Source: Nitrospirota bacterium (GTDB lineage: Bacteria > Nitrospirota > Thermodesulfovibrionia > Thermodesulfovibrionales > SM23-35). From it: a stretch of DNA of 64,000 nt. The translations under genes and the position numbers were made by a program. Shown here piece after piece: positions 39,226 through 59,139 of this stretch (position 1 is the first letter of the stretch; each line of letters begins with the position of its first letter). The stretch covers positions 15,949 through 79,948 of the forward strand of contig JBFLZS010000002.1 in NCBI GenBank assembly GCA_040756135.1. Direction: 5' to 3'. A model generated the notes under the pieces. That model was not told the origin of the DNA, made no database searches, and saw nothing but the letters and a program-made list of their open reading frames with translations.

Positions 39226-40731
39226 ATGGAAAGCGAAATATTGATTAACGTAACACGCGATGAAATCAGGGTCGGCCTCCTCGAAGGAGGCCAGGTAGTT
39301 GAATTCTATGTTGAAAGGAAGCGTGATGCAAGCCTTGTCGGAAACATCTATAAAGGTAAGGTTGTAAAAATTCTCCCTGGTATGCAGTCTGCCTTCGTTG
39401 ATATAGGTCTTGAAAAGGCAGCTTTTCTGTATGTTACTGACATCCATGCCGGCATGGAAGAATTTGCACCTTTTCTCGAGGAAGAAGAAAAAAACAACTC
39501 TGTAGAAGTGATTTCAAAGAGGGGAAGACCAGATCTTACCATAGAGGAGCTAATCCAGGAAGGACAGGAAATCCTCGTACAGGTATCAAAAGACCCTATC
39601 GGAAGCAAGGGAGCAAGGGTCACCTCATATGTAACGATGCCTGGCAGATATCTCGTGCTTATGCCAAATGTGGAGCATATAGGTATATCGAGGAGGATAT
39701 CTGAGGAGTCTGAACGAACAAGACTCAGAACAATAGTCGAGTATATAAAACCAAAAGGTTATGGCCTGATTATAAGGACGGCAAGTGAGGGTTCTGCCGA
39801 GGAAGACCTTAAAAAAGACTTGGACTTTCTCCTTCTATTATGGGAAAACATCCAGAGGAAAAAGGATAGGGTATCCGCACCAACCCTGCTTTACAGTGAC
39901 TTCGATCTTGTCTTCAGGAGTGTAAGGGACCTTATGCTCCAGGATGTTAAAAGGCTTGTTATAGACTCTGAGGAAGAGTACGAACGGATAAAGGATTTTG
40001 TCAGGGCATACTTTGAAAAGCTTTTGGGAATGATAGAACTATATGAAGGTACGGAGTCGATATTCGATGCATTTGGAATTGAGCTTGACATATCGAGGGC
40101 ACTTGGAAGAAAGGTCTGGTTGAAATCCGGCGGTTACATAGTTATTGACCAGACAGAGGCGATGACGGTCATAGATGTAAATACCGGTAAGTTTGTTGGC
40201 AAAGAGGAACTCGAAGACACAATACTCAAGACTAATCTTGAGGCAGTAAAGGAAATAGCTTATCAGATAAGGCTCAGGAATCTCGGCGGGATTATAATAG
40301 TAGATTTCATAGATATGGAAAGACATGATAACAGGGAGAGAGTATTCAATGCATTTGTTGAGGCAATGAAAAGAGACAGGGCAAAAAATACGATATCCCA
40401 TATATCGGAGCTCGGGCTTATACAGATGACAAGGAAGCGTGTCAGGGAGAGCCTCGGCAGAACACTCTGCGAATCCTGTTCATACTGTGAAGGCAAGGGA
40501 TTTGTAAAGTCGCCCCGAACCCTGTGTTATGAGATATTCAGAAAGATAACGAGACTGGCAAAACATGGCGGGGAAAGGATTATTGTTACAGCCCATCCTT
40601 CTGTTGCAGAGCTTCTTACTGATGAAGAGCGCGCAGGTATTGAGGATATAGAAAATAGATATAATGTAAAAATCACCATAAAGGAAAGCCGCAGCCTTCA
40701 TCAGGAAAATTATGAAGTCACAGTTTTATAG
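39226..40731 (+). CDS. rng: Ribonuclease G/E family endoribonuclease
   Basis: It has an S1 domain (GNIYKGKVVKILPGMQSAFVDIG) and the catalytic region (..IDQTEAMTVIDVNTG..). Confidence 0.85.
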   Translation: MESEILINVTRDEIRVGLLEGGQVVEFYVERKRDASLVGNIYKGKVVKILPGMQSAFVDIGLEKAAFLYVTDIHAGMEEFAPFLEEEEKNNSVEVISKRGRPDLTIEELIQEGQEILVQVSKDPIGSKGARVTSYVTMPGRYLVLMPNVEHIGISRRISEESERTRLRTIVEYIKPKGYGLIIRTASEGSAEEDLKKDLDFLLLLWENIQRKKDRVSAPTLLYSDFDLVFRSVRDLMLQDVKRLVIDSEEEYERIKDFVRAYFEKLLGMIELYEGTESIFDAFGIELDISRALGRKVWLKSGGYIVIDQTEAMTVIDVNTGKFVGKEELEDTILKTNLEAVKEIAYQIRLRNLGGIIIVDFIDMERHDNRERVFNAFVEAMKRDRAKNTISHISELGLIQMTRKRVRESLGRTLCESCSYCEGKGFVKSPRTLCYEIFRKITRLAKHGGERIIVTAHPSVAELLTDEERAGIEDIENRYNVKITIKESRSLHQENYEVTVL

Positions 40732-40907
40732 AAGACCATTTGTTGTAAAATCTATTTTTACATCTAACACTTAAATTACTTCTTATTTACAACTAAAATC
40801 ATGAAAATAGCAATAATTAAATTGCTATTTTCCAATAAGTTATACTCGGTTTTTGCCAATTTATTGCTTTTCTTTTGCTATATTATTGCTTTGTGCCCCC
40901 CTCGTTA

Positions 40908-41225
40908 TCAAATCAAAACCCATTTGGATTTTCGTTTATGATAATCTCCTTTAAGTACATCATAGAAATTCTCTCGTTTGCCGATCATGATAATATAGAC
41001 AATCTTCCTCTCATCATCAACAGTATAGGCAATTCTATAATCAACCTTGTTCTCTCGAAAATGGTAGCAGAATATCCCTTCAAGATCACCGTAAAGACAT
41101 TCTCCAATAAAAGGATTCTCCAGCAAGATGTCCAGGTGAGTACTGTGGATTTCTTTTACTGCATGTTTATCCAGTTTTTTTAAATCTGCTTTGACCCTTG
41201 GATGATATGCATCCTTATAAGACAT
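40908..41225 (-). CDS. RelE/ParE-family type II toxin
   Basis: 105-aa ORF with ..RIAYTVDDERKIVYIIMIGKRENFY, the typical RelE/StbE C-terminus. It overlaps the upstream small gene by 11 nt. Confidence 0.7.
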   Translation of the reverse strand: MSYKDAYHPRVKADLKKLDKHAVKEIHSTHLDILLENPFIGECLYGDLEGIFCYHFRENKVDYRIAYTVDDERKIVYIIMIGKRENFYDVLKGDYHKRKSKWVLI

Positions 41226-41412
41226 CCCTGAATGTCTCCTCTCTCGTAAGAGGCTTAACTTTTTTTGTTTTAATATCTCGTGCCCGCTTCACAAGTTCCC
41301 GACCTTCACCCGACAATAAGAGAAGCAACATTTCCTTGTCAGCCTTTTTCAACTTTTTTATAGAATTAGCGATGTCTTCAACCTTCAATTCGACCATTAC
41401 CCCAACACTCAT
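41215..41412 (-). CDS. Putative antitoxin
   Basis: 65-aa ORF with a strong RBS (GAGGAGG) 8 nt upstream of the ATG at 41412. The call rests on its position immediately upstream of, and overlapping, the RelE-like gene. Confidence 0.5.
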   Translation of the reverse strand: MSVGVMVELKVEDIANSIKKLKKADKEMLLLLLSGEGRELVKRARDIKTKKVKPLTREETFRDVL

Positions 41413-41500
41413 TTCTTTTACCTCCTCATATATAATTATTTTTATTCTAATAATATTGTACAATCTCCCTCCTCACTATCCCGCCCCATGAGATATTTGA

Positions 41501-42160
41501 CTATAATTCCCCGTGTTCCAGCAAACTGTAATACCCCTTGTGGTTAAAAATGATGTGATCAAGAAGTTTTATCCCAAGAATTTCTCCTGCAGCTTTTAAC
41601 TGTTCTGTAATTTCGATATCATCTTTACTTGGTGTCAATCCGCCGGATGGATGATTATGCGCTACGATGACAGATGAAGCACGGTCGGTTATCGGGTCAG
41701 AGAAAACCTCTCTGGGATGTACCTGAGTTCTATTGACAAGTCCAACAGAAACAACACGGCTTTTTATTACTTCATTAGCACCATTAATTGAAATACATAT
41801 AAAATGTTCTTGCTTTCGGTCTGCATAATGCTGAATTAACGGAAGTATATCAGCAGGGAAGGAAATTTTAAGTCCCTCCGGTCTGATACGGCGTCGCGAA
41901 AATTCAAGTGCAGCAGCTATAAGAGTTGCTTTTGCAAAACCCACTCCTTCGATTTTTTTAAGTTCTTCAATATCAGGTTTTTCTTTACTATTATCCAATG
42001 CCTTTAATACACGTGCAGCAATGTTCATCACGTCATGGCCTTTAATGCCTCTGCCAAGAAGGATTGCAAGCAATTCAATATCGGATAGGGCTTCAGCGCC
42101 TTTTTGCTGGAGTTTCTCGCGGGGACGGTCGGATGCAGGAATGTCCTTAATCTTTTTCAT
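41501..42160 (-). CDS. radC: RadC-like JAB-domain protein
   Basis: It begins MKKIKDIPASDRPREKLQQKGAEALSDIELLAILLG (HhH N-terminus). The JAMM motif is HNHPSGGLTPSKDD. The ATG at 42160 forms an ATGA overlap with the upstream stop. Confidence 0.85.
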   Translation of the reverse strand: MKKIKDIPASDRPREKLQQKGAEALSDIELLAILLGRGIKGHDVMNIAARVLKALDNSKEKPDIEELKKIEGVGFAKATLIAAALEFSRRRIRPEGLKISFPADILPLIQHYADRKQEHFICISINGANEVIKSRVVSVGLVNRTQVHPREVFSDPITDRASSVIVAHNHPSGGLTPSKDDIEITEQLKAAGEILGIKLLDHIIFNHKGYYSLLEHGEL

Positions 42161-42549
42161 TTCAGATGGAGTTGTGCATTCTCTGCCAATTCCATCGCAA
42201 TCAATTTCTGTTCTGATTTCTCTCTTGGCCATCCAATGATATTCGCATGCCTTGGTGGGTTGTTGTCCGGAGCTATTTTTAATTTATTACTCAAAATATG
42301 GAACGCTGCAATATCTGCCCGTCCTAAAAGTGGCCGACTCCGCTTTTGAGCTACTTCACGGTCACCGATTCCCCATATTTCATTGTCAGATAAGTGTGAA
42401 ATACGAAATACCGATGTTTCGCCATTAGGTGCCGGCATGAAAACTACATATTTAACCCTTCTATATAAGCTGCTGAAATGATTTATATGAAGAATATAAC
42501 GAGTTAGAGTCTCTTCCGGACTTACTTGTTCTAAATTCAAGGCTGTCAT
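42157..42549 (-). CDS. Hypothetical protein (130 aa)
   Basis: It runs from the ATG at 42549, 1 nt after the upstream stop. It has conserved-looking segments ETSVFRISHLSDNEIWGIG and PPRHANIIGWPREKSEQ. No family recognised. Confidence 0.45.
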   Translation of the reverse strand: MTALNLEQVSPEETLTRYILHINHFSSLYRRVKYVVFMPAPNGETSVFRISHLSDNEIWGIGDREVAQKRSRPLLGRADIAAFHILSNKLKIAPDNNPPRHANIIGWPREKSEQKLIAMELAENAQLHLK

Positions 42550-42550
42550 C

Positions 42551-43009
42551 TTATGGATATAGACGGCGAAGATTCTCAATAATTTTTGTGGGGATTGAAT
42601 CACTAAAATATTCTGTACCGTGAGTCTTATTGCTACCAAATATGCCAGCATAAGCAATCATATTTTTCCCGCTGAAACTGATTGCAAAAGCCAATCGTTT
42701 ACCTTTATACCATTCCAACCCTATCTCGCCAGAAGGCTCAGCCAAAATTTGAGGAATAGGGAATGAAGAAGGAAGTAATTGAATAAAATCTAATGCCTCA
42801 GAAATAGAGTCGTTTGACACTGGATTCGCACCATAACCGTCCCAATTGGGCTTAGAACATTCTTTATAAAGTTCTAAGAGTGATTCAACCGCTTCTTCAA
42901 TGGGACGACCAATTGTTACAGTGGTTTTCCATATTTCTTTTTTGCTATATTCCATATTGCATGGAACGTAAAAACTGGGACAATCAATGCACTGGACTGC
43001 TACGCTCAT
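42551..43009 (-). CDS. Hypothetical protein (152 aa)
   Basis: It has an ATGA overlap with the upstream gene. It contains the NWDGYGANP and GEIGLEW segments. No family recognised. Confidence 0.45.
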   Translation of the reverse strand: MSVAVQCIDCPSFYVPCNMEYSKKEIWKTTVTIGRPIEEAVESLLELYKECSKPNWDGYGANPVSNDSISEALDFIQLLPSSFPIPQILAEPSGEIGLEWYKGKRLAFAISFSGKNMIAYAGIFGSNKTHGTEYFSDSIPTKIIENLRRLYP

Positions 43010-43746
43010 AAAAATAGCTCCTTTGCTTTTTCAGTAATACTTTTAAAAAATATTTCATTTTTGAAATGGCGTAATTTTTCAAGGATCTCCCATGTCTCTT
43101 TTTCGCTTATTCCCTCAGATTTTTGCTTGAATACATCTATATCCAATATTAAAGGCAAAATGTTAGGATTAACAATTTGTTCAAAAGCCTGTGTAATTAT
43201 AGCAGTGGCATCTATTTTAGGTTCATGTATAACAATGCGTGTCAAAAAACTACTAACCCCTTGCGGCAACCCATCTGGCACAGTCGGCGCCGCTGTCAAA
43301 TAATCACTGAAGTCCATAATAGGAAGAGGAATTTCCATTTTATTAATATATCTTAAAGCTACTCTTGTAATCTCAGGAGAGGTTACTTCTTTATATTTTC
43401 TCCATAATCCGTGTGCTTCATTGCGAAGATGTTCCCATGTTTCGTATGGCTTTAATCTACTGAATGTAAAACCATCTAATCTTGTCTGGAGTATCTGGCT
43501 CTTGTCAACAGACGTAAATATATAGCCATCAATTGTTTCAGTACTAGTTGAAATCGGGGTCTCACCTCTTTTAAATCCTAATTTGCCTTCCCATTTATGC
43601 CTTTCTTTTTTATCCGGATATTGTCCTGAAATAGAATCGTATATTGAATTGAACTGTTCAACTGATAAATCTTCTTTCACCTTAATCCGAATATCAATGA
43701 GAGCTTCTATAATAGGTGCTTTCGACAACACTGAATATTCAACCAT
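43006..43746 (-). CDS. Hypothetical protein, resembles the TIGR04255 family
   Basis: 246-aa ORF. The N-terminal ..APIIEALIDIRIKV.. and the overall length recall TIGR04255 (function unknown). The assignment is from memory and unverified. Confidence 0.45.
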   Translation of the reverse strand: MVEYSVLSKAPIIEALIDIRIKVKEDLSVEQFNSIYDSISGQYPDKKERHKWEGKLGFKRGETPISTSTETIDGYIFTSVDKSQILQTRLDGFTFSRLKPYETWEHLRNEAHGLWRKYKEVTSPEITRVALRYINKMEIPLPIMDFSDYLTAAPTVPDGLPQGVSSFLTRIVIHEPKIDATAIITQAFEQIVNPNILPLILDIDVFKQKSEGISEKETWEILEKLRHFKNEIFFKSITEKAKELFL

Positions 43747-43813
43747 TACGCCCCTCTAAATTAATATTTAGAAAAATATTGAATATTATATCAGAAAGAG
43801 GTGTTTCCATTTT

Positions 43814-45157
43814 TTATTTCTTGTTCCCCTTTTTCTTTATTACGTGTTTTGCCTTTTCAGCCCTGATGCGCTCCAGCAGAACCGAAGCCGGTTCGTCATT
43901 CGGATCCTGCGGTACAAGCTCGCCACGGAAGGCTTTAGCAAGTACGGACTGTGTGAGTCGATTTATGAAAGATTTTCCATCAACTAGACTGATTTGAGAT
44001 AAACGAATTCTACATATATTTATTTTATAAAAAAGTTTGTCCAATTTATTTACAATCCTATACTGTTCATTAAATGGAGCTATTATTATTGGAACCAGAC
44101 TTAGATTTTTTTGATTTATTGAAACTTGATTTACTGCATGACTTACTCTGCTACGAACCTCTTGTCGGAAAAATTCTGTTTGCATGAAATAGTGGGCATA
44201 TTTGGGCAATATATAGGAATGTCCAAAACGTAATCTCAGTAAATTCATACCATGAATAAATTGTTTTGGTTCGCCCTCATAGAGAGCAGTTTTACCAACA
44301 TGTTCATAACTGTTGATATGACTTAGGGCAATATCACCCATTTTGTATCTGTATGCCTCCAAAACATCTTTAGAAATATTATCTACATGCTGTACTCTAC
44401 TTAGATCAAATGTATATGATTGAATAGTCTCAATCCTTGAAACGGGTATTCCTCTTCCAGTTTTATTTTGGGTCATTGTAGTCCCATTTTTTATTTCGAA
44501 AAAACATTCACCGATTGTTGAAATTATCCAGCTACTTGGGAAATTATCTAAACTATTTTGATTATTTTCTTCAATTAATGCTATTAGCTCCCTTAAATCA
44601 TCAACCGTTGTTTCAAATATCGTTATAACCTCGCTTGCCAGATCCTGCGGCTCCGGGAGTCCGTCAACATCTTCAACTGATTCGTCTTTAAGCCAAGTTA
44701 TATCAAGCTTATAATCCCGCTCCTTGATGTCACTGATATGGAATTTTCTGAATCGCCCTTCTTCACCTGAATCAGTTCTCTTGCTCTGACCATTGGGGTC
44801 TTTGCCATAACACTTTTCAAACTCCTCAAAATGCTGTGGAGTAAGAGGCCTGTCTTTCTTTGTTATCCCGGGAACATTTGAGCGGGCATCAAATATCCAG
44901 ACATGTTCTGTGGGCAAACCTTTCTGAAAGAATATTACATTTGCCTTTACTCCCTGACTGTATGGTGTAAATGTTCCCCTTGGAAGACGTAGAATAGTGT
45001 GCAAATTACAATCCTTCATCAATATCTCAAAGACTTCCCCAGCTTTATCTTCAAAAAGGCAATTATCGGGTAAAACCATTGCTGCCTTTCCGCCGGGTTT
45101 AAGGATATTCATGACATGCTTCATAATCATGGTCGCCGCTTTCCTGAGCAAAGGCAC
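43814..45157 (-). pseudogene. hsdS: Type I R-M relic: HsdM C-terminal part fused in frame to a single-TRD HsdS
   Basis: KHVMNILKPGGKAAMVLPDNCLF..ILRLPRGTFTPYSQGVKANVIFFQKG is the HsdM C-terminal third. No SAM-binding or NPPF motifs are present. It is followed by one TRD and a conserved HsdS C-terminus (LAKAFRGELVPQDPNDEPASVLLERI). Confidence 0.7.
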
Positions 45158-46061
45158 TTTCCCATCCGAACAGATTGATAGTCATCCTCTGAATTGTGGA
45201 AACATACACAAAAGTATGCGTTTCTTGAGGTGATGTGAGATATACGTCAGGCAAGACTTTTGGATCAAAGGGTTTGTCATCTTCAATATCTTCACGCCTG
45301 AAACGTTGACTGTATACTTCGTATTCCTGGTCAAACTTATTACCTTTTGGAGTATTGAAAGAGGCAAACTCACGAACAGCCTGTGCTGCGAGTGCCCTTC
45401 TGTCAACAAGGAATAAAATTCTTCTTACGGCCTTAGCTTCGAGGAGACGATATATCTGTGCTACCGTTACAAAAGTTTTACCAGTGCCAGTCGCCATTGC
45501 AACAAGCATCTCCCTTTTGCCTTTGATGATTGCAGATTCAACAGCGTGAATTGCGTCTCTTTGATAGTAACGTAAACCTTCTATGTTAATGGGATTGCCT
45601 CTGAGCCATTCATAGTTGTCAGATGCACTTCTGTTAAAGATTTCCCATATTGCATCTGCTGTATGGAAATCGGTTATTTTTCTCGAAATGTTTTTCTCGC
45701 TGCGGATATCAATGTACCAGATTATCTCTCCATTCGTTGCATAGAGAAGTGGAACCCTATAGCCATTCCAATTGCCGGGCCCATTAAAAGAGCCTTTTGA
45801 ATAACGCTTTGCCTGTTCGAGAACATTTTGAGGGCTAATACCTACCTTTTTCGCCTCAATTATTCCCAACAGTTTGCCTTTTACAAACAGGGCGTAGTCA
45901 GCAGGACCATTTGCAGTAGGATATTCTTCCACAGCGTGGCAATAGAGTTTTGACATATCTAAATTATCTTTATATTTTATAATGATCCAGGATGGATTGA
46001 GAGCAGTGAGCTTTCTGTTAATTCTCTCTCTTCTTGTCTGCCATTCAAGTTCTTCGGTCAT
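45099..46061 (-). pseudogene. hsdR: Type I restriction enzyme HsdR, N-terminal third only
   Basis: It has a nuclease-like N-terminus (PADYALFVKGKLLGIIEAKK), LRYYQRDAI and Walker A MATGTGKT. It ends after STIQRM.. in out-of-frame sequence. The DEAH box and helicase C domain are absent. Confidence 0.75.
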
Positions 46062-46392
46062 CTTGACTCTCTTCTTGTTGATAGCGTGCTCTATTCAAAT
46101 CGATCTATTTCCAACCTCCGAGATTAAAATACTCCACAAAAATCAGCACGATCGGAACTTTAAATGTATCAACGAATACGGCCCTCGGCTCAGTAATCTC
46201 TCACGCGGCCTCTCATCCACCGGCCATGACACAATACCTTTCGACTTTCTTTTGTCTGAGATTTTCATTTCAGATCTATTCTATATTATATTCAATGTGT
46301 TACGATAATTTTACTTTTTCTCTTTCGTTGTTCAAACCCGCATGTTTATTTGACGTAATTCAGTCTTTAAAAGTAACATAAGGATATACAGA

Positions 46393-47193
46393 ATGACAGA
46401 AAAATTAACACATCTCATAAATATCCTCAAGGATATGCAAAGTGCTGTGCTTGCCTATTCTGGAGGTGTAGACAGCACATTTCTCCTGAAGGCAATGCAG
46501 CTTTCAAACATAAGGACCCTTGCTGTAACAGCAGTTTCAGAAATAGTGCCTTATCATGAAGTGCTTTTGGCAAAAAAGATGGCAGAGGAAATCGGTATTG
46601 AACACATGATTATCGAAACTCATGAACTTTCCAATGAAATGTTTGTCATTAACACTTCTGAAAGATGTTTTATTTGTAAAGACACCAGATTCAAAATACT
46701 TGAGGATATTGCAATATCAGAAGGATATAGATTTGTTCTTGACGGGAGTAACAGTGATGATTTGGATGATTATAGACCTGGCAAAAAAGCAGCAGAAAAA
46801 TACGGCGTGAGAAGCCCCCTGATAGAAGCAAATTTTTCAAAAAAAGAAATACGAGAACTCTCGCAGAAATTAGGCCTTTCAACATGGAACAAGCCATCTT
46901 CCCCCTGTCTTGCTACACGCATACCATATGGACAGAGAATAACAAAGAACTCATTAAAAAGGATCGAACGCGCCGAGAATTTTCTGAAGTCTCTCGGGTT
47001 CATTATAGTAAGGGTAAGAGATCATTATCCTGAAGCAAGAATAGAAGTCGGAAAAGAGGAAACAGCTTCACTGCTGGAGACCGAAAAGAGAATGATGATT
47101 TCTGAAAAACTAAAGTCCCTTGGTTTCTCCTTTATTACAATCGATCCCGAAGGGTATAAGAGCGGTGGTGTGAGTACTACAGCAATTTTTTAG
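46393..47193 (+). CDS. larE: ATP-dependent sacrificial sulfur transferase LarE / PP-loop ATPase (TIGR00268 type)
   Basis: The PP-loop is AYSGGVDSTFL. 266 aa, with ..CLATRIPYG.. in the C-terminal region. Confidence 0.75.
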   Translation: MTEKLTHLINILKDMQSAVLAYSGGVDSTFLLKAMQLSNIRTLAVTAVSEIVPYHEVLLAKKMAEEIGIEHMIIETHELSNEMFVINTSERCFICKDTRFKILEDIAISEGYRFVLDGSNSDDLDDYRPGKKAAEKYGVRSPLIEANFSKKEIRELSQKLGLSTWNKPSSPCLATRIPYGQRITKNSLKRIERAENFLKSLGFIIVRVRDHYPEARIEVGKEETASLLETEKRMMISEKLKSLGFSFITIDPEGYKSGGVSTTAIF

Positions 47194-47328: not shown

Positions 47329-48504
47329 ATGGAAAATCTGCAATATTTAAAAGAGCTTGAGAAATGTGTACGCTGCGGAAGCTGCAAGGCATTCTGCCCA
47401 ACTTATGATGAAGACTCTATAGAGGGGATGGGTGCGAGGGGAAGACTTATGCTCCTGTGGGGACTCTCCTCAGAACAGCTTAAACCAACCCCAATCTTAA
47501 ATGAACGTATTTTTAGCTGCATTTTATGTGGCGCATGCTCAGGGTCGTGTCCGCTCGGAATTGATATCAAAGAGGTTATATTTCATGGCAGAAGTCTTCT
47601 AAGAAAAACAGACAAAAAAAGGAGGTATCTCCGACTCCTTACAAGGTTCTCTACAAAAAGGCCAAAATTGAGTTTCAGGCTTTTAAGTATGTCCCAGTAT
47701 ATTTTATTTCCCTACCTGTTTAAAAAAGGACTCCTTCCTTTTAAAATTGATCTGCCCGAACGCCACCTGAAAGAGAAACCTCATGTATACACAGTTTCTA
47801 AAAAGAAAGGCAGGGTAGCGGTTTTTACAGGATGTGCTGTTAACTTTCTTTATCCATATTTAAGGGAATCCCTTATTAATGTCCTCCATAGACTCGGTTA
47901 TGAAGTAATCCTCCCTACAGGTGAGATGTGCTGTGGTATGCCTTTAAGAGCCCTCGGTCTCGAGGAAGAGGCCATAAAACTTGCAAAAAAGAACCTTGAA
48001 ATATTCAGCAGACTAAATGTTGATGCGGTACTGAGTCTCTGCCCAACATGTACACTTGCTATTAAAGTAGAATACCCAAAGCTGATAGGAGAGGGTATAG
48101 ATAAGGCAAAGGACATATCAAGTTTTTTCCTTGAAGAATTAAACTCTTCTCAATACTCACTTCTGCCTCCTTTAAAGGGCGTCGTCTTTCATGACCCTTG
48201 TCACCTTAAATACGGACTGGGCATCGAGAGGGAACCGAGGGAGATCATAAGAAATATCGGTATAGACTTGATAAAGACTGAAGGAGACAGATGTTGCGGC
48301 TTCGGAGGTATTTTCAGCCTCTCTTACAAAGAGCTTTCACAGGGGCTTCTTGATAAATGCATCAGAGACTATATAAAGGCAGGGGCGGAGATGATTATCA
48401 CTTCATGCCCAGGCTGTATGATCCAGTTGACAAAAGGGGCTGAGAACAAGCCGGTTTTACATTTAATCGAGGTTATAGAGGAGGCATGTAGCCCTTCATC
48501 TTAA
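47329..48504 (+). CDS. (Fe-S)-binding oxidoreductase subunit, GlcF / HdrD-like (2x[4Fe-4S] + two CCG domains)
   Basis: It has CVRCGSCKAFCP and CILCGACSGSCP ferredoxin motifs. The CCG motifs are CCG(M)PL and CCGFGG. Confidence 0.8.
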   Translation: MENLQYLKELEKCVRCGSCKAFCPTYDEDSIEGMGARGRLMLLWGLSSEQLKPTPILNERIFSCILCGACSGSCPLGIDIKEVIFHGRSLLRKTDKKRRYLRLLTRFSTKRPKLSFRLLSMSQYILFPYLFKKGLLPFKIDLPERHLKEKPHVYTVSKKKGRVAVFTGCAVNFLYPYLRESLINVLHRLGYEVILPTGEMCCGMPLRALGLEEEAIKLAKKNLEIFSRLNVDAVLSLCPTCTLAIKVEYPKLIGEGIDKAKDISSFFLEELNSSQYSLLPPLKGVVFHDPCHLKYGLGIEREPREIIRNIGIDLIKTEGDRCCGFGGIFSLSYKELSQGLLDKCIRDYIKAGAEMIITSCPGCMIQLTKGAENKPVLHLIEVIEEACSPSS

Positions 48505-48508
48505 TTGT

Positions 48509-49558
48509 TTATGCAGGTCTATCCCCGTATCTTCGATAATTAATGATGCTTTCATGCACCACAACTTTTATAAAACCAGCAACCGGTACAGCCAGTAACA
48601 TCCCGATTATTCCGAACAATTTGCCGCCGATAAGTAACGAAAATAATACCAACAGCGGATGTATCTGAACGCTTTTTGCTAACGCTAAGGGCAGCACAAG
48701 GACATCGTCAATTAACCTGATTAAAGTAAACGCAACAATTATATAAAGCATTTTATCAAAAGCCCCTGTCTGGAGTATTGATACGATAATAGCGATTGTA
48801 GCCCCTGTAACCGGCCCAAGATAAGGGATAAGATTTGCCAGTCCGGCAACTATGCCGATAATAAAAAAATATTTAACACCAATTAACCATAATGCAAAAA
48901 TAGATAAAATGCCCACTATAGTTGCTTCAAGCATCTGACCTCGTAAATAATTTCCTATCTGAATATTCAATTTATGAATTAAATAAAGGGTAAACTCAAA
49001 GTACCGGTTCGGTATAATGCTTACAAATACCCTTTTAAACTTCCGTCCATCTTTCATGAAGAAAAATACTATAACAGGGATAAGAACCATACCCGTAATT
49101 ACAGAGGCTGCATCGAGAACGTGACTAAAAATCCAGTCTCCCACCCCGGCCATGGCATTCTGTATCCTGCTTAACAGGTTTAAATCCTTTATACCTAAAA
49201 AGGCGAGATTGGTGACGAGAAAGTCTTCAGTGCTTGAGACCATTAATCTCGCCTTTTCTAAAATAAAACCACTTTGAATCGCCTTTATCTCCCCATACAG
49301 GACAGGCAAAAAAATAATGGATGAAATGCCAGCAAGTGCACAAAAAAACAGAAAGATGGTGGCTGTTGCAGATGTCCGGCTCATTCCACGGGATTCAAGA
49401 AGGCTTGCTAAAGGGTCTAAGACATACGCTAACAATGCAGAGATTATCACTAATTTTACTACATCAGAGATGACAGCAAGAACTGCTGCGAGTATTATAA
49501 ACACAATTAAAAAAAATATTGACTTGGATAGGTTGCTGCTATTCCTGTAAACCTTCAT
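48509..49558 (-). CDS. AI-2E family transporter (PerM/UPF0118)
   Basis: 349-aa polytopic membrane protein with ..IPYLGP.. and the typical AI-2E topology. TAATG coupling with the upstream gene. Confidence 0.8.
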   Translation of the reverse strand: MKVYRNSSNLSKSIFFLIVFIILAAVLAVISDVVKLVIISALLAYVLDPLASLLESRGMSRTSATATIFLFFCALAGISSIIFLPVLYGEIKAIQSGFILEKARLMVSSTEDFLVTNLAFLGIKDLNLLSRIQNAMAGVGDWIFSHVLDAASVITGMVLIPVIVFFFMKDGRKFKRVFVSIIPNRYFEFTLYLIHKLNIQIGNYLRGQMLEATIVGILSIFALWLIGVKYFFIIGIVAGLANLIPYLGPVTGATIAIIVSILQTGAFDKMLYIIVAFTLIRLIDDVLVLPLALAKSVQIHPLLVLFSLLIGGKLFGIIGMLLAVPVAGFIKVVVHESIINYRRYGDRPA

Positions 49559-51420: not shown

Positions 51421-51496
51421 TGGTGGGCAGTCGCAGAATCGAACTGCGGACACGAGGCTTTTCAGGCCTCTGCTCTACCGACTGAGCTAACTGCCC
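51421..51496 (-). tRNA. tRNA-Phe (GAA)
   Basis: The reverse complement folds by eye as GGGCAGT TA GCTC AGTCGGTA GAGC A GAGGC CTGAAAA GCCTC GTGTC CGCAG TTCGATT CTGCG ACTGCCC A CCA. This gives a cloverleaf with anticodon GAA and an encoded CCA. Confidence 0.9.
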
Positions 51497-51736
51497 ACAA
51501 CTTTCAAGCTTTAAATTACACTTTTAACTTCCATACTGTCAAGGTATGCACTGGACTATAAAGATATCCGCACCTTTTAGGGCGCAAGAGGGTAGAATTG
51601 CAGCAAGTTGTTTTTCCAGAATTGATTATATGCAAATTGTTATGATATTCTTTTCAAAATCACTTCTTTTAATCCAGGCAGTAGGTCTTATAATGTACAA
51701 CCGACTGATGCCGGCCATTAAATAAGAGAGGTGCCG

Positions 51737-53083
51737 ATGTCGTATCGAGCTTGGTTTCAATGCATCAACCAGGAGTGCCGGGCGAGCTATCCGCTCAACT
51801 CAATCCTCTATCGCTGCACTACGTGCGGCTCGCTTCTGGAAGTGCAGCACGACCTCCACGCCCTCTCCCTTCGCGGTCACAAGGAGTGGATTAAGCTATT
51901 CGATGATCGCTACAAGTCTACTGAATGGCCATACGGCTCCGGCGTGTGGGGTAAGAAGGAATGGGTTCTGCCTCAGATTGATAACGAAAATATCGTCTCG
52001 CTTTACGAGGGCGGCACTAACCTGTTCTGGGCCGAGCGGTTCGGCAAAATGCTCGGTCTGCAGGATCTCTGGATCAAACTCTGCGGTAATTCCCACAGCG
52101 GTTCCTTTAAGGATCTCGGCATGACAGTCCTTGTGTCTCAGGTTAAGCAGATAATCAGCGAAGGCGCGCCGATCAAGGCAGTCGTCTGTGCGTCTACCGG
52201 CGATACCTCGGCCGCACTGGCGGTTTACTGTGCTGCTGCCGGCATCCAGTCCATTGTGTTGCTGCCGAAGGGCAAAATCTCGATCGCACAGCTCGTCCAG
52301 CCGATTGCTAACGGTGCTCTGGTATTGTCGCTGGATACCGACTTCGACGGTTGTATGCGTGTCGTCCAGGAAATCACAAAGGACGAGATGTTCTACCTGG
52401 CCAATTCGATGAACTCTTTGCGTATTGAGGGTCAGAAAACCGTCGGTATTGAGATCGTCCAGCAATTCGATTGGGAAACGCCTGACGTAATCATCATTCC
52501 CGGCGGTAACCTCGGGAATGTCTCCGCGCTTGGTAGCGGCTTGCTAATGATGCGCGACCTCGGCCTGATTGCCACGCTACCGCGCATTGTTCTTGCCCAG
52601 GCCGAACGCGCCAACCCGCTTTACCGATCATATCTGAAAAACTTTGAGACCTTCGAGCCGATCGAGGCCAGGAAGACATTGGCCAGTGCCATCCAGATTG
52701 GCGATCCGATTAGTGTCGAGAAGGCCATCCGCACGCTGAAGCAGTTCAACGGGATCGTTGAGCAAGCCACGGAGCAGGAACTGGCTGATGCCGCCGCTCT
52801 CGGTGACACCACCGGCATGTTAAACTGTCCGCACACCGGCGTCGCGCTCGCAGCTCTGCTCAAGCTGCTCAAAGCCGGCAAGATTAATAAATCCGAGCGC
52901 GTCGTGATCATTTCCACGGCTCATGGGCTGAAGTTTACCGACTTCAAGGTGCGCTACCATGAGGGAACGCTGGACTTTCCCTGCCGCTTCGCCAATAAAC
53001 CGATCGAGCTGCCACCCCGGGTGGACGCGGTCAAGGAGACCCTCAAGCAAGCTTTGCAGAAGAGGAGGAACACTGATGTCTAA
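51737..53083 (+). CDS. thrC: Threonine synthase (with N-terminal zinc-ribbon)
   Basis: The PLP-Lys motif is SFKDLG. It also has ..[10 protein letters not shown].. and an N-terminal C..C...C..C ribbon. Its G+C content is markedly higher than the flanks. Confidence 0.85.
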
Positions 53084-54284
53084 GAGGTCATCAAAAACCA
53101 AGAACTGGAAGTCATCCACCCTTGCTATCCATGGCCCGGGCCGAACTCCCAAAGCCCACTATGCTGTCTCCACGCCGATCGTTCAGACCTCCAACTACTA
53201 TTTCGACTCCACTGCTGAGGTGCTGGAGTTTATGAAAGCTAAGAGTGAGGGCCGCGTTGTGCGTGAGCACGAATACGGCCGCTACGGCAACCCGACCCAG
53301 CAGGAGTGTGAACGTAAGCTTGCTGCCATCGAGGGCGCCGAGCGGGCGTTGCTTTTCTCCACCGGCATGAGCGCAGTGATCATTACGTTGTTGGCCTATA
53401 TACGCCGCAATGGCCACATCATCTTCACCAATGACTGTTATCGTCAGACTCGCGATTTTGCCACAAACCTGCTGGCAGAGTTCGGGCTGGAAGTCTCGCT
53501 GGTGGATCCGACTGCCGAGGCCATTGCCAAAGAGATCCGGCCCAACACCAACATCATCTTTACCGAATCGCCGACCAATCCCTACCTGCGCGTGCTGGAC
53601 ATTCCGGCGGTGGTAAAAGTTGCCAAACAGCACAGAGTGATGACCATCATTGATGCCACGCTGGCCACACCGTACAACATCAAACCACTGGACATGGGCG
53701 TGGATATCGTCATCCACTCCGCTACAAAGTACCTCGGCGGTCACAACGACCTGCTGGCCGGTGCTGCCCTCGGCAAACACGATCTGCTGAATGACCTCAA
53801 CCGCATGCAGAGGATGATTGGTGCTACACCTGGCCCGCTGTCTTGTTTTCTGCTAGAACGCGGGCTGAAGACCTTTGCGCTCCGCATGGAGCACCACAAC
53901 CGCGCCGGGCTGGCTATCGCCCGTATACTGGAGTCGCATCCGAAAATCGAAAAAATCTGGTATCCGGGCTTAGAGTCGCACCCGGATCACCAAGTAGCGA
54001 TCCAGCAGATGCGCGGCTTTGGCAGCGTGATCACCTTTCTTCTTAAAGGCGGCGACAAGGAGACGTGCAAGTTCATTGATTCGCTGGAGCTATTCTTGAT
54101 AACGCCCAGTCTCGGTGGCAGCGAGAGCCTGGTGACGCAAATGGCAACGATGTCATTCTTTGATTACCCGGAGGATCACCGCCGCTCGATCGGCATGGTG
54201 GACAACCTGGTCCGCATCGCGCTCGGCCTGGAGGACGTGGAGGATCTTATCGCCGACCTTAAGCAGGCATTAGACAAGATATGA
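53076..54284 (+). CDS. Cys/Met-metabolism PLP enzyme (cystathionine gamma-synthase / beta-lyase family)
   Basis: It has MSKRS..TLAIHG.., YGRYGNPT and PLP-Lys [11 protein letters not shown]. An RBS (AGAGGAGGA) precedes the ATG at 53076. It overlaps thrC by 8 nt. High G+C. Confidence 0.85.
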
Positions 54285-54303
54285 ACCTCACAGGCGGAAC
54301 CAT

Positions 54304-54657
54304 TTAAACCTCAAATGCGTCCTTGATATGCTCGATCTCCTTCTCTCCATTATCCATGCAAAAGATGCTGAGGACATCAAATCTTATAGGAAATTCCTTC
54401 CCCTGATTTTTTAAGTAGAATAAGGCCAAATTTTTTAGTTTCTGTTTCTTCCTCTTGTTTACTGCTTCAAATGGATAGCCAAAAGAATCATCTGTTCTTG
54501 TCTTTACTTCAATGAATACTAAAGTATCACCGTCTTTTGCAATAATATCAATCTCACCAATAGGGGTCTTATAGTTTCGCGTAATTATCTTATAGCCTTT
54601 TTTATTTTTTAGGAACCTGACCGCAAGTTCTTCGCCCTCAGTACCAAGGGCTTTCAT
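54304..54657 (-). CDS. yraN: YraN-family (UPF0102) endonuclease-like protein
   Basis: It has GEELAVRFLKNKGYKI..RNYKTPIGEIDIIAKDGDTLVFIEVKTR. Confidence 0.85.
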   Translation of the reverse strand: MKALGTEGEELAVRFLKNKKGYKIITRNYKTPIGEIDIIAKDGDTLVFIEVKTRTDDSFGYPFEAVNKRKKQKLKNLALFYLKNQGKEFPIRFDVLSIFCMDNGEKEIEHIKDAFEV

Positions 54658-55512: not shown

Positions 55513-57327
55513 ATGGCACCAAAATTAGGTCAACTCCTTATATCCTCTAACATTATCTCAGAGGATCAATTAAAGGAAGCCCTTAATCTCCAGAGGAGAG
55601 AGGGTGGAAGGCTGGGGACAAACCTTGTGAAATTAGGTTATATAACCGAGGAAAAACTTGTCACATTCCTCAGCAGACAATATGGTGTTCCTGCAGTAAA
55701 TTTATCTGACTACAAGATTGACCCATCAGTTTTAAAGCTCATACCTGTTGACATAGCAAAGAAGTATCTTATAATGCCAGTTGCAAGGGTTGGGGCTGTC
55801 TTGACAATTGCGATGGTTGATCCATCTAATGTATTTACAATAGACGATGTGAAGTTTATGACAGGATACAATGTTGAGGTTGTTGTAGCGAGCGAATCCT
55901 CGATCTTAAATGCAATATCCACATATTATGCGGGTCATGGTGACACCCTTATTGCGGCAAAGAAGGCTACCACAACACAGGTGCTTGAGGCAAAGGATTA
56001 TACACTTTCAGAGGAGGACTTCGTGGATGAAGGTATAACAACTTCAATTGACGAAGGCTTTATGGTCGATGTCGATGAATTTGATAAGGTAGTGGATAGG
56101 GCCCTCGACGATGTTGAAGTGATAGAGGAAAGAGAGGATGCAGAAACTGCAAAGGATGTAGCACAACCAATAGTAAAGCTTGTTAATGGCATACTTGTAA
56201 ATGCGATAAAGGCAAGGGCAAGCGATGTCCATATAGAACCATATGAGAACTCTCTGAGGGTAAGGCAGAGGGTTGACGGCGTGATGTATACAATCATGAA
56301 CCTGCCCGTAAAGATAAAGGCTGCTGTAACATCGAGGATAAAGATAATGGCAACCCTTGATATTGCAGAGAGGAGGCTTCCTCAGGATGGAAGGATTAAA
56401 CTGAGACTCGGCAAAAAAAGAGAGATAGATTTCCGTGTCTCGACTGTGCCATGCCTTTTTGGTGAGAGGACTGTTTTAAGGCTTCTTGATAAGTCAAACC
56501 TTCAGGTGGATCTCACAAGGCTTGGATTTGAGGAAGAAACATTGCAGCATTTTATGGATGCACTTGACAAGCCATATGGCATGATACTCGTTACAGGACC
56601 TACTGGATGTGGCAAAACAACCACCCTCTATTCTGCATTAAATTACCTCAATAAGATAGGTGTTAATATATCAACTGCTGAGGATCCTGTTGAATATAAT
56701 TTCTTAGGTATAAATCAGGTCCAGGTTAAGGAAGATATAGGCCTTACCTTTGCCTCAGCCTTAAGATCCTTTTTGAGGCAGGATCCTGATATCATAATGG
56801 TTGGAGAGATTCGCGATTTCGAGACAGCCGAGATCGCGGTTAAGGCAGCCCTTACAGGCCATCTTGTCCTCAGTACCCTTCACACAAATGATGCACCTGG
56901 AACTATAAGTAGATTATTGAATATGGGTGTCGAGCCCTTTCTTGTCGCAGCATCAGTCATCCTTATTGCTTCCCAGAGGCTTGTCAGAAAGGTATGCACT
57001 GATTGCAAGGAGGATGAAAAGATTCCTGTTCCTGCCCTTATAAGGCTGGGATTCTCAGAAGAAGAGGCAAATTCCATAAAATGTTACAAGGGTAAAGGTT
57101 GTCCTGTATGCAATGGTTCCGGGTATAAAGGAAGGATAGCCCTTTATGAGGTTATGCCGCTCAAAGACGAACTCAAGGAACTCATCCTTGAAGGTGCATC
57201 AGCAGATGAGTTAAAAAAGACTGCTATTAGGCTCGGTATGAAAACGCTAAGAGCGAGTGGCCTTGCCAAAATAAAGAGTGGTATAACCTCTGTAGAAGAG
57301 GTAGTCAGGGTCACATTTGGTGATTGA
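55513..57327 (+). CDS. pilB: Type IV pilus assembly ATPase PilB (GspE family), copy 1
   Basis: It has an N-terminal MshEN/T2SSE_N domain, Walker A GPTGCGKTT and a tetracysteine motif (CTDC..CPVC). 604 aa. Confidence 0.9.
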   Translation: MAPKLGQLLISSNIISEDQLKEALNLQRREGGRLGTNLVKLGYITEEKLVTFLSRQYGVPAVNLSDYKIDPSVLKLIPVDIAKKYLIMPVARVGAVLTIAMVDPSNVFTIDDVKFMTGYNVEVVVASESSILNAISTYYAGHGDTLIAAKKATTTQVLEAKDYTLSEEDFVDEGITTSIDEGFMVDVDEFDKVVDRALDDVEVIEEREDAETAKDVAQPIVKLVNGILVNAIKARASDVHIEPYENSLRVRQRVDGVMYTIMNLPVKIKAAVTSRIKIMATLDIAERRLPQDGRIKLRLGKKREIDFRVSTVPCLFGERTVLRLLDKSNLQVDLTRLGFEEETLQHFMDALDKPYGMILVTGPTGCGKTTTLYSALNYLNKIGVNISTAEDPVEYNFLGINQVQVKEDIGLTFASALRSFLRQDPDIIMVGEIRDFETAEIAVKAALTGHLVLSTLHTNDAPGTISRLLNMGVEPFLVAASVILIASQRLVRKVCTDCKEDEKIPVPALIRLGFSEEEANSIKCYKGKGCPVCNGSGYKGRIALYEVMPLKDELKELILEGASADELKKTAIRLGMKTLRASGLAKIKSGITSVEEVVRVTFGD

Positions 57328-57330
57328 ACT

Positions 57331-59139
57331 ATGGCAGCGAAATTAGGTCAACTCCTTATAGCCTCTAATATTATCTCGGAGGATCAGTTAAAGGATGCCC
57401 TTAATCTCCAGAAGAGAGAGGGTGGAAGGCTGGGGACGAACCTTATGAAATTAGGTTATATAACTGAGGAAAAACTTGTCACATTCCTCAGCAGACAGTA
57501 TGGTGTTCCAGCAGTAAATTTATCTGATTACAAGATTGACCCATCAGTTTTAAAGCTCATACCTGTTGACATAGTGAGAAAGTATTTTGTAATGCCTGTT
57601 GCGAGGGTTGGGGCTACCTTAACGGTTGCGATGGTTGATCCATCTAATGTGTTTGCAATAGACGATGTAAAGTTTATGACAGGGTATAATGTTGAGGTTG
57701 TTGTAGCCAGCGAATCCTCGATCTTAAATGCCATATCCACACATTATGCGGGGCACGGTGACACCCTTATTGCGGCAAAGAAGGCTACCACAACACAGAT
57801 GCTTCAGGCAAAGGATTATACACTTTCAGAGGAGGATCTAAGGGAGGAAGAAATAGTTTCGTTTGATGAGGGCCTAATGGTCGATGTCAATGAATTTGAT
57901 AAGGTTGTCGGAGATGCGCTGGATAGTATAGAGGCATTTACTGAAAAAGATGAAGCAGCAGTTACAGAGGTTGAAGAGCCAATAGTAAAGCTTGTTAATG
58001 GCGTACTTATAAATGCAATAAAGGGAGGTGCAAGTGATATCCATATAGAGCCGTACGAGAGCTCTCTGAGGGTTAGGTACAGGGTTGACGGCGTTTTGTT
58101 TAATGCGATGAATCTGCCATTAAAAATAAAGAATCCTATAACCTCAAGGCTCAAGATAATGTCAAAGCTTGATATTGCAGAAAGGAGGCTTCCTCAGGAT
58201 GGAAGGATTAAACTGAGACTTGGTAAAAAAAGAGAGATAGATTTCCGTGTTTCGGTTCTGCCATGTCTTTATGGCGAGAAGACGGTTCTAAGAATTCTCG
58301 ATAAGTCAAACCTTCAGGTAGACCTTACAAAACTTGGATTTGAGGAAGATGCATTAAAAATATTCATGGATGCACTTGACAAGCCATATGGCATGATACT
58401 TGTTACAGGACCTACTGGAAGTGGTAAGACAACTACCCTCTATTCTGCATTGAATTTCCTTAATAAGCCCGGTATTAACATAATGACTGCTGAGGACCCT
58501 GTTGAGTATAACTTTTCAGGGATGAATCAGGTACAGATAAAGGAAGATATAGGACTTACATTTGCTTCGGCCCTCAGATCTTTTTTACGGCAAAGTCCGG
58601 ATATCATCTTAGTGGGCGAGATTCGTGACTTCGAGACAGCCGAGATTGCGGTTAAGGCAGCCCTGACAGGCCATCTTGTCCTCAGCACCCTTCACACAAA
58701 TGATGCCCCGAGCAGCGTAAGCAGGTTATTGAATATGGGGATAGAACCCTTTCTTGTATCGGCATCTGTTATCCTTATCGCAGCCCAGAGGCTTGCCAGA
58801 AAGGTATGCACAGATTGCAAGGAGGAGGAAAAGATTCCTGTTCCTGCCCTTATAAGGCTGGGATTCTCAGAAGAAGAGGCAAATTCCATAAAATGTTACA
58901 AGGGTAAAGGTTGTCCTGTATGCAATGGTTCAGGGTATAAAGGAAGGATAGCCCTTTATGAAGTTATGCCTATTAGCACAGAGATAAAGGAGATGATTCT
59001 TGAAGGGGCATCGGCAGAAGAGTTAAAAAAGACTGCTGTGAGACTCGGCATGAAGACGTTAAGGATGAGCGGTCTTAATAAAGTGAAAGAAGGTATCACT
59101 TCGATAGAAGAAGTGATGAGAGTTACGTTTGGAGATTAA
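57331..59139 (+). CDS. pilB: Type IV pilus assembly ATPase PilB, copy 2 (tandem paralogue)
   Basis: 602 aa, collinear with copy 1. Walker A is GPTGSGKTT. It starts 3 nt after the copy 1 stop. Confidence 0.9.
   Translation: MAAKLGQLLIASNIISEDQLKDALNLQKREGGRLGTNLMKLGYITEEKLVTFLSRQYGVPAVNLSDYKIDPSVLKLIPVDIVRKYFVMPVARVGATLTVAMVDPSNVFAIDDVKFMTGYNVEVVVASESSILNAISTHYAGHGDTLIAAKKATTTQMLQAKDYTLSEEDLREEEIVSFDEGLMVDVNEFDKVVGDALDSIEAFTEKDEAAVTEVEEPIVKLVNGVLINAIKGGASDIHIEPYESSLRVRYRVDGVLFNAMNLPLKIKNPITSRLKIMSKLDIAERRLPQDGRIKLRLGKKREIDFRVSVLPCLYGEKTVLRILDKSNLQVDLTKLGFEEDALKIFMDALDKPYGMILVTGPTGSGKTTTLYSALNFLNKPGINIMTAEDPVEYNFSGMNQVQIKEDIGLTFASALRSFLRQSPDIILVGEIRDFETAEIAVKAALTGHLVLSTLHTNDAPSSVSRLLNMGIEPFLVSASVILIAAQRLARKVCTDCKEEEKIPVPALIRLGFSEEEANSIKCYKGKGCPVCNGSGYKGRIALYEVMPISTEIKEMILEGASAEELKKTAVRLGMKTLRMSGLNKVKEGITSIEEVMRVTFGD

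Follow-up and report, generated by a model that had tools for sequence, protein, structure and literature searches.

We analysed a 64,000-nucleotide (nt) stretch of DNA from a Nitrospirota bacterium (assembly GCA_040756135.1, contig JBFLZS010000002.1, positions 15,949 to 79,948; hereafter the window), in which two genes, thrC and cgs, form an islet that is far richer in G+C than its surroundings. The islet is a two-gene operon for a plant-type threonine synthase (TS) and a cystathionine gamma-synthase (CGS)-like enzyme. The identity of both genes and their coupling are directly visible, and the view that the two enzymes would compete for one substrate, predicted to be O-phosphohomoserine, is well supported. 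As to history, we lean slightly towards the view that a phylum-typical, plant-type TS/CGS branch-point operon either came in from GC-richer Nitrospirota or was replaced in part by recombination with them, and has ameliorated little since. An earlier note, made from the sequence alone, had proposed a recent horizontal acquisition or xenologous replacement next to a tRNA gene; its interpretation is partly supported here, and its observation on composition is confirmed. The features of the locus, in window coordinates, are as follows.

51421..51496, minus strand: tRNA-Phe (GAA), host gene flanking the operon (ARAGORN; Rfam 69.5 bits)
51592..51736, plus strand: AT-rich leader/promoter region of the operon, with a Shine-Dalgarno-like AGAGAGG 5-11 nt ahead of the ATG
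51737..53083, plus strand: thrC, plant-type threonine synthase, 448 amino acids (aa) (TIGR00260, PF00291, PDB 1e5x)
52037..52100, codons ~100-120 of thrC: approximate recombination breakpoint zone (synonymous divergence by segment, bootscan)
53076..53083, plus strand: 8-nt overlap of the thrC stop and the cgs start, CTGATGTCTAA (sequence and junction comparison)
53076..54284, plus strand: cgs, cystathionine gamma-synthase-like pyridoxal phosphate (PLP) enzyme, 402 aa (PF01053, PDB 1qgn/1i41)
54304..54657, minus strand: yraN (UPF0102), convergent host gene and right border of the islet (NF009154, 129.6 bits)

A coupled threonine synthase and cystathionine gamma-synthase-like enzyme

The first gene encodes a threonine synthase of the plant type. 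ThrC scores 212.1 bits against TIGR00260, which passes the curated equivalog cut-off of 167.1, and 198 bits against PF00291 (fold type II). Its top match among solved structures is the Arabidopsis chloroplast enzyme TS1 (PDB 1e5x; 560 bits, 59% identity over residues 16-440), as against at most 194 bits for bacterial TS structures. Bacterial and yeast structures align to ThrC only from about residue 75 onward, whereas the alignment with 1e5x reaches residue 16, so that the plant-like N-terminal domain is present. The N-terminus carries a four-cysteine zinc ribbon (C9, C14, C27, and C30), and the PLP-lysine motif SFKD is aligned with its plant counterpart. We compared 84 related thrC loci, giving an alignment of 85 sequences, in which the zinc-ribbon cysteines and the PLP motif are invariant. 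Relatives in a library of representatives at 50% identity form a graded series (64, 53, 49, 48, 42%, and lower) with no isolated cluster. By homology, ThrC probably converts O-phosphohomoserine to threonine.

The second gene encodes a PLP enzyme of the Cys/Met-metabolism family (PF01053, 425 bits). Its top match in the PDB is tobacco CGS (1qgn/1i41; 362 bits, 45% identity over residues 15-402), and the runner-up, methionine gamma-lyase, scores about 60 bits lower (303 bits). The PLP-lysine motif, SATKY, is invariant across the family, and the lysine segment aligns with tobacco HSATKFLGGHND. The product lies under the cut-off in all 25 NCBIfam equivalog models listed, those for metB, metZ, MGL, and CGL among them; its highest score, 363 bits, is to TIGR01328 (methionine gamma-lyase), where 549.7 are required. 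Both gene names given in the earlier note were thus right, since thrC clears its equivalog model and its neighbor is a PF01053 enzyme.

The two genes are physically linked well beyond the window. In 56 of the 84 related loci, thrC is immediately followed by cgs, and no other gene neighbor is conserved across the loci. Among the 55 loci in which both genes are complete, six (L005, L009, L010, L013, L022, and L075; e.g., L022:9995-12547) have a single fused TS-CGS open reading frame (ORF) of 847-849 aa, and all six fall in the same subclade as the window. One extra base relative to the fused loci is present in the window and in L004, which therefore have split genes with the CTGATGTCTAA overlap, an arrangement that would couple translation of the two. 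Because cgs mostly adjoins thrC, the genes overlap, and six loci are fused, there is strong evidence that TS and CGS work together. The searchable literature yielded no account of a TS-CGS operon or fusion in bacteria.

Plant CGS and TS are known to compete for O-phosphohomoserine (PMC4523565). If the same holds for the window's enzymes, the plant-type TS would turn O-phosphohomoserine into threonine, while the plant-type CGS would open a route from it to homocysteine and methionine. The idea of an O-phosphohomoserine branch point had been offered earlier as speculation. It now stands on firmer ground, with plant TS and CGS as the best solved relatives and with genes that are coupled here and fused in six relatives, although the substrate itself is still predicted.

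Composition, family, and mosaic structure of the operon

The islet differs sharply in composition from the rest of the window. Positions 51737-54284 have a G+C content of 0.557, compared with 0.403 for the remainder and 0.409 for the window overall. In 150-nt windows, G+C rises from 0.35 to 0.55 across 51.65-51.75 kb and falls from 0.56 to 0.36 across 54.2-54.35 kb, so that the steps lie at the borders of exactly two genes, as the earlier note had claimed. G+C at third codon positions (GC3) is 0.70 in thrC and 0.705 in cgs, whereas the 57 remaining ORFs of the window have a GC3 of 0.381 +/- 0.049 (maximum, 0.481); each gene is therefore more than 6 standard deviations outlying. The excess is mostly at synonymous positions. 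Long antisense ORFs (189, 98, 110, and 222 aa) are confined to the islet. This crowding had been noticed before, as had the proximity of the islet to its neighbors: 240 nt separate tRNA-Phe from the thrC ATG, and 19 nt separate the cgs stop from convergent yraN at its near end. The hand-made G+C counts that accompanied those remarks (36 of 60 at 52201-52260 and 21 of 60 at 48901-48960) are exact.

The codon usage of the operon is that of a GC-richer genome. Arginine is encoded by CGN in 87% of cases in the operon, as against 78% AGA/AGG in the host; Ile-ATA accounts for 8% versus 43%, and Leu-CTG for 43% versus 11%. At fourfold-degenerate sites, A makes up 8.5% in the operon and 36% in the host. 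G-ending and C-ending codons are both increased, and every codon class is shifted. Host genes from genomes of 0.55-0.60 GC come nearest to this usage; the operon's own host is the third-furthest of 25 backgrounds, and the only two further away are other low-GC genomes. Thus, the description of thrC and cgs as compositional aliens is borne out. The ATP synthase alpha, beta, and gamma subunit genes in the window have a GC3 of 0.40-0.42, and ribosomal protein genes of a close relative have 0.28-0.39. High expression is therefore not the cause of the GC excess.

The GC3 excess of thrC varies between hosts. Across the family, the regression of thrC GC3 on host GC3 has a slope of 0.80 and an intercept of 0.25, with flank GC3 estimates that are unreliable for GC-richer hosts. 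The window (+0.32) and its sister genome (+0.26) are the extremes, and at similar host GC the excess spans from 0.00 (L063) to 0.32 (window). L009 is a largely ameliorated copy, with a thrC GC3 of 0.33 and a flank GC of 0.31. The excess thus varies with history, which argues against a constant selective offset and favors import from a GC-richer source followed by slow amelioration.

Polarized third-position changes were also considered as a sign of ongoing amelioration. GC-to-AT changes outnumber AT-to-GC changes 42:10 in the window and 47:12 in the sister, and the controls behave alike. Since control lineages show an equal excess, the test is non-discriminating, and we rejected this line of evidence. 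The bias toward AT appears in every lineage tested, including GC-rich hosts with GC-rich thrC; it could be either a parsimony artifact or the product of AT-biased mutation opposed by a GC-favoring fixation bias at thrC.

The operon is typical of Nitrospirota, specifically of Thermodesulfovibrionia and their relatives. More than 120 ThrC clusters lie at 85-91% identity, and all the named ones are from Nitrospirota, Thermodesulfovibrionales, or Dissulfurispiraceae. An exact query of the contig index with the window ThrC itself gave no match. A scan of species-representative genomes found relatives in at least 588 genomes, of which the best 80 loci were retained; these are 76-88% identical to the window ThrC. 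Many of the best 80 are from Verrucomicrobiota, often without a CGS gene nearby, and a few come from metagenome-assembled genomes (MAGs) labeled Acidobacteriota, Limnocylindrales, Myxococcales, Gemmatimonadota, or Omnitrophota, where misbinning may account for some of the phylum labels. The flanking PilB, by comparison, shares 38% identity with its verrucomicrobial homologues. The family is very strongly conserved, and its range extends to Verrucomicrobiota and further anaerobic phyla of soil and sediment.

In neighbor-joining (NJ) trees, a Nitrospirota clade stands apart from verrucomicrobial clades, with a few mixed groups, and both proteins of the window branch inside Nitrospirota. Over the whole gene, the nearest neighbor of the window ThrC within the Nitrospirota clade is that of the sister MAG, Thermodesulfovibrio sp. 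RBG_19FT_COMBO_42_12, whose PilB is 92% identical. The window thrC has a synonymous divergence (dS) of at least 0.72 to every sampled relative and above 1 to most, with a ratio of nonsynonymous to synonymous divergence (dN/dS) of 0.06-0.1. Because synonymous sites are near saturation and dN/dS is low, the family is old and under strong purifying selection, and it has not spread recently.

Some loci sit oddly in these trees. Operon copies L009 (a 3.4-kb contig labeled “Nitrososphaerales archaeon”), L012 (“Betaproteobacteria”), and L042, L044, L049, and L050 (likewise labeled as unrelated phyla) nest in Nitrospirota or in one tight cluster; the labels are likely binning or taxonomy errors, and otherwise these would be real cross-phylum transfers. 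In three verrucomicrobial loci (L016, L027, and L037), the CGS nests in the Nitrospirota CGS clade while the ThrC branches with Verrucomicrobiota, which suggests that the two genes have separate histories in that lineage.

The operon of the window is a mosaic. Six host genes compared between the window and the sister have a dS of 0.12-0.34, and thrC as a whole has 0.72. This value conceals two very different segments. Codons 1-100 have a dS of 0.24, the host-gene level, and codons 121-448 have a dS of 0.95, which is as distant as unrelated lineages (L002, 0.93; L075, 0.83). The upstream leader falls with the first segment: homology with the sister contig L085 begins at window position 51592, 145 nt ahead of the ATG, where the genes further upstream differ, and the leader thus travels with thrC in the sister genome. 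In the leader, the sister is clearly nearest (identity 0.80-0.86 versus 0.60-0.74 for others). In a bootscan, too, the sister ranks first across the leader and roughly 350 nt at the start of thrC (0.80-0.92) and nowhere else. Beyond ~51.9 kb, the L170/L002 lineage (host GC 0.49) takes over and stays nearest until cgs ends (0.83-0.90), with the sister down at 0.78-0.85, which puts the switch at about 51.9-52.1 kb. A maximum chi-squared test on total nucleotide differences places its best single split further 3', at codon 180, and 15 of 2000 permutations reach the observed value. The surviving cgs fragment of the sister is 86% identical to the window and 88-92% identical to others, and the protein closest to the window ThrC (P0002, 91%) sits in an L002-type genome. 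There is thus evidence for recombination inside the operon, which lends support to the allelic form of the earlier proposal, xenologous replacement.

Since the 5' segment is at host-level dS and the remainder is as distant as unrelated lineages, we propose an ancestral GC-rich operon that was later mostly replaced in one lineage. The operon would have been present, and already GC-rich, in the common ancestor of the window genome and the sister MAG, whose own operon has a GC3 of 0.68. After the split, homologous recombination with an allele of another, GC-richer Nitrospirota lineage may have overwritten, in one of the two lineages, the part from about codon 120 of thrC through cgs; such recombination is possible because the operon is highly conserved. 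The operon would ultimately derive from a GC-richer gene pool, as its codon usage hints, while the host drifted to 0.40 GC. Import or re-import from GC-richer relatives, with too little time for amelioration, could then have left the sharp GC step at the gene borders.

Several observations weigh against this history or limit it. In nearly all hosts, thrC GC3 exceeds flank GC3 (mean, +0.12 +/- 0.07 for the 31 hosts of at most 0.55 GC), and the GC3 offset could be a fixation bias intrinsic to thrC. GC-richer controls show the same GC-to-AT excess as the window (L075, 40:8; L002, 43:4; L013, 46:11). The host baseline comprises six genes; a seventh, hyp270, has a dS of 1.31, and one pair was mis-paired. 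There is no close donor: the best match to the 3' segment is 83-90% identical at the nucleotide level, and with dS at 0.72 or above to all relatives the replacement is therefore either old or from an unsampled donor. The recipient might have been either the window lineage or the sister lineage. The mosaic could also reflect an assembler switching between co-occurring populations. Finally, with cgs below all NCBIfam equivalog cut-offs, its use of O-phosphohomoserine is argued from homology only.

Rival histories and genomic surroundings

The best-surviving rival is vertical inheritance, with high GC3 maintained by selection on synonymous sites or by GC-biased gene conversion at a locus that recombines often, and no import needed. 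We consider this unlikely, yet gene-intrinsic fixation bias remains a serious rival. The offset of thrC above its flanks in essentially every host, with its positive intercept, speaks for it, and the window and sister copies are nearest neighbors in a common neighborhood. GC-to-AT changes occur everywhere while composition stays high, as predicted for a fixation bias that opposes AT-biased mutation, and recombination is indicated at the locus. However, the GC-to-AT excess is possibly a parsimony artifact, and ameliorated copies exist in low-GC hosts (L009 and L063). Among hosts of similar GC, the excess lies anywhere between 0 and 0.32, which is not how a constant offset would behave. The preferences for Arg CGC, Leu CTG, and Ile ATC oppose host codon usage, and the ATP synthase and ribosomal genes are without excess. 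Furthermore, the effects of GC-biased gene conversion reported in bacteria amount to a few percent of GC3, not 30 points.

An artifact of metagenome assembly or binning, in which reads of a GC-richer population were joined to the ends of host contigs, is improbable as the origin of the islet or the mosaic. The window does come from a MAG contig, 104,909 bp long and represented by P0001 and P0121 at 100% identity, and an operon that is 80-90% identical between co-occurring Nitrospirota invites graph tangles; the nearest neighbor also changes within thrC. The sister scaffold (L085:11335-11650) breaks into runs of N exactly inside the CGS gene, which suggests that metagenomes in which several Nitrospirota share this conserved operon make it difficult to assemble. 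Nevertheless, host DNA lies on both flanks, and two assemblies made independently, those of the window and of L085, both have the AT-rich leader running straight into GC-rich thrC. The 19-nt right spacer is too short for a shared repeat, and operon copies have identical stretches of 26-45 nt at most in common. The same contrast in GC is found in a closed 3.59-Mb chromosome (L013; 0.555 versus 0.463) and in a 1.24-Mb contig (L001). Because the contrast recurs in these and in the sister assembly, a chimera is unlikely to be its cause.

The surroundings of the operon have been rearranged. The window flanks are common to none of the 84 thrC loci. In the sister (L090 and L085), the order is AI-2E transporter, cyclic-nucleotide (cNMP)-binding regulator, tal, a Zn-ribbon ORF, tRNA-Phe, an inverted 13-kb block, a radical-SAM/BATS gene, PilZ, leader, and thrC. 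The inverted block corresponds to window positions 48486 to 35101, which in the window lie directly upstream of the AI-2E gene; this host block (RNase G, radical-SAM, and CCG/Fer4 genes) is thus inverted and relocated between the two genomes. The tRNA-Phe is 100% identical in the sister-type locus L090, and yraN is 94% identical at the nucleotide level between window and sister. Independent acquisition at different sites in the two genomes, an explanation we had entertained, was overturned by L090 and by tRNA scans, which revealed the common neighborhood and the inversion of the 13-kb block. The operon occupies the same neighborhood in both genomes, and host blocks were therefore rearranged around it.

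Other relatives extend this picture. The block of yraN, a Toprim protein gene, and pilB is kept in relatives, each with a different gene adjoining yraN; in distant relatives this gene is an AAA ATPase, a methyltransferase, or rplQ. In relatives whose tal is 92% identical, gyrB-dnaN-dnaA comes after it. No clean empty site was found among relatives with PilB at 88-92% (yraN side) or with tal at 92% (tal side). The tal/tRNA-Phe/yraN area is a general synteny breakpoint and a rearrangement hotspot. Thus, tRNA-Phe is merely a neighbor of the operon, and the different surroundings in relatives reflect the rearrangement of host blocks.

A recent island, inserted at tRNA-Phe by an integrase and derived from a foreign lineage, has sharp compositional borders 240 nt from a tRNA gene in its favor and is otherwise effectively refuted: a profile search of the neighbors found no integrase, transposase, or other mobility gene, flanking direct and inverted repeats are at chance level only, the cassette faces the 5' end of the minus-strand tRNA-Phe, in the sister the 13-kb host block separates the operon from the tRNA (distance put at 10 kb), both genes are placed in the host phylum, and dS to all relatives is at least 0.72. 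The islet resembles tRNA-associated islands in its borders, and these borders of atypical composition are the only one of three genomic-island criteria that it displays; it differs from them in lacking an integrase and direct repeats, in its position on the 5' side, and in consisting of just two core-metabolism genes typical of the host phylum. The earlier suggestions of tRNA-Phe as an integration site and of recent acquisition from a foreign lineage consequently fall, given also the GC-rich sister operon; that both proteins branch with the host had been named beforehand as an outcome that would count against recent acquisition. The locus is a cautionary case for genome scanning, as a GC-rich islet beside a tRNA gene mimics an island and yet is a phylum-typical operon whose codon usage and mosaic structure point to recombination with GC-richer relatives.

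Further features of the window were recorded. The neighbors of the operon are tal, yraN, a Toprim protein gene, tandem pilB genes, the AI-2E transporter gene, and the cNMP-binding regulator gene. A comparison with Rfam turned up no riboswitch or leader RNA ahead of thrC, and no sigma-70-like promoter or terminator at the islet borders exceeds shuffle expectation. At the GC-skew minimum (~55 kb), DnaA boxes are matched no more often than chance predicts (14 versus 17.8 expected), giving no sign of a replication origin. The tandem pilB paralogues (55513-57327 and 57331-59139) share ~83% nucleotide identity and are followed by pilT-like, pilC, pilS-like, and pilR-like genes; the duplication is kept in L087 and L089. 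A block at 40731-46401 is missing from the corresponding place in L099 and in L085/L090. It carries fragments of a type I restriction-modification system (an N6-methylase fused to a specificity subunit, 447 aa, and a truncated HsdR-like ORF, 320 aa) and has a host-like GC of 0.35-0.41, making it a variable island without a compositional signal.

Comparison with known systems

The operon resembles known cases of xenologous or allelic replacement in that a gene stays in place but contains an internal segment of different ancestry and foreign composition. It differs from them in that no close donor was found and the unreplaced 5' segment is equally GC-rich. We regard this finding on transfer and composition as fairly ordinary; the TS-CGS module, its breadth across phyla, and its fusions are of greater interest. 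They suggest that many uncultured anaerobes (Thermodesulfovibrionia, related Nitrospirota, and some Verrucomicrobiota) may partition O-phosphohomoserine as plants do. The natural TS-CGS fusions offer a tractable system for studying how flux is split at the threonine/methionine branch. Should this use of O-phosphohomoserine be confirmed, automated pathway tools would need a rule for its transsulfuration in bacteria, and the ThrC/CGS family would be a candidate relative of the plant-enzyme donor.

Other bacterial routes also lead from O-phosphohomoserine to homocysteine, namely the MetM/MetO thiocarboxylate route of Streptomyces and the DUF39/Dde_3007 route proposed for Desulfovibrio (GapMind 2026 preprint; PMC4045070). 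MetM is a threonine synthase homologue that is frequently misannotated as TS (same sources). These routes share with the window's operon the use of O-phosphohomoserine as a common precursor of threonine and methionine. The window ThrC is distinguished from MetM by clearing the TS equivalog cut-off and by its 59% identity to an authentic plant TS. It is paired with a PLP enzyme of the CGS family, in place of the sulfur-carrier protein or DUF39 of the other routes.

The closest known systems are those of plants. Activation by S-adenosylmethionine (SAM) is a hallmark of plant TS. Arabidopsis TS1/MTO2 (1e5x, 2c2b, and 2c2g), which uses O-phosphohomoserine as its substrate, shares with ThrC the N-terminal domain that other solved TS lack, and its PLP-lysine motif, SFKDLGMTV, is identical. 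The two differ in their N-terminal details: TS1 has no cysteine at the positions aligned to C27 and C30 of ThrC, C9 and C14 lie upstream of the alignment, and ThrC has no transit peptide.

Plant TS and CGS have been reported to be of non-cyanobacterial bacterial origin (PMC3518814). Taken with the plant enzymes being the best solved relatives, this may make the present family relevant to the question of their donor. We put forward, tentatively and as a possibility that is still rather doubtful, that the operon is a bacterial counterpart, possibly near the source, of the plant threonine/methionine branch point. A zinc-ribbon TS, perhaps responsive to SAM, and an O-phosphohomoserine-dependent CGS would form one regulated and sometimes fused unit, spread among anaerobic phyla by transfer and recombination. 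Tobacco (Nicotiana tabacum) CGS and Arabidopsis MTO1 represent the second half of the plant branch point. Plant CGS is the closest solved relative of the cgs product and has the PLP-lysine motif in common with it, although the N-terminal regulatory extension of the plant enzyme is absent from the window protein. In plants, CGS competes with TS for O-phosphohomoserine; in the window, the genes for the two enzymes are coupled, and in relatives they are fused.

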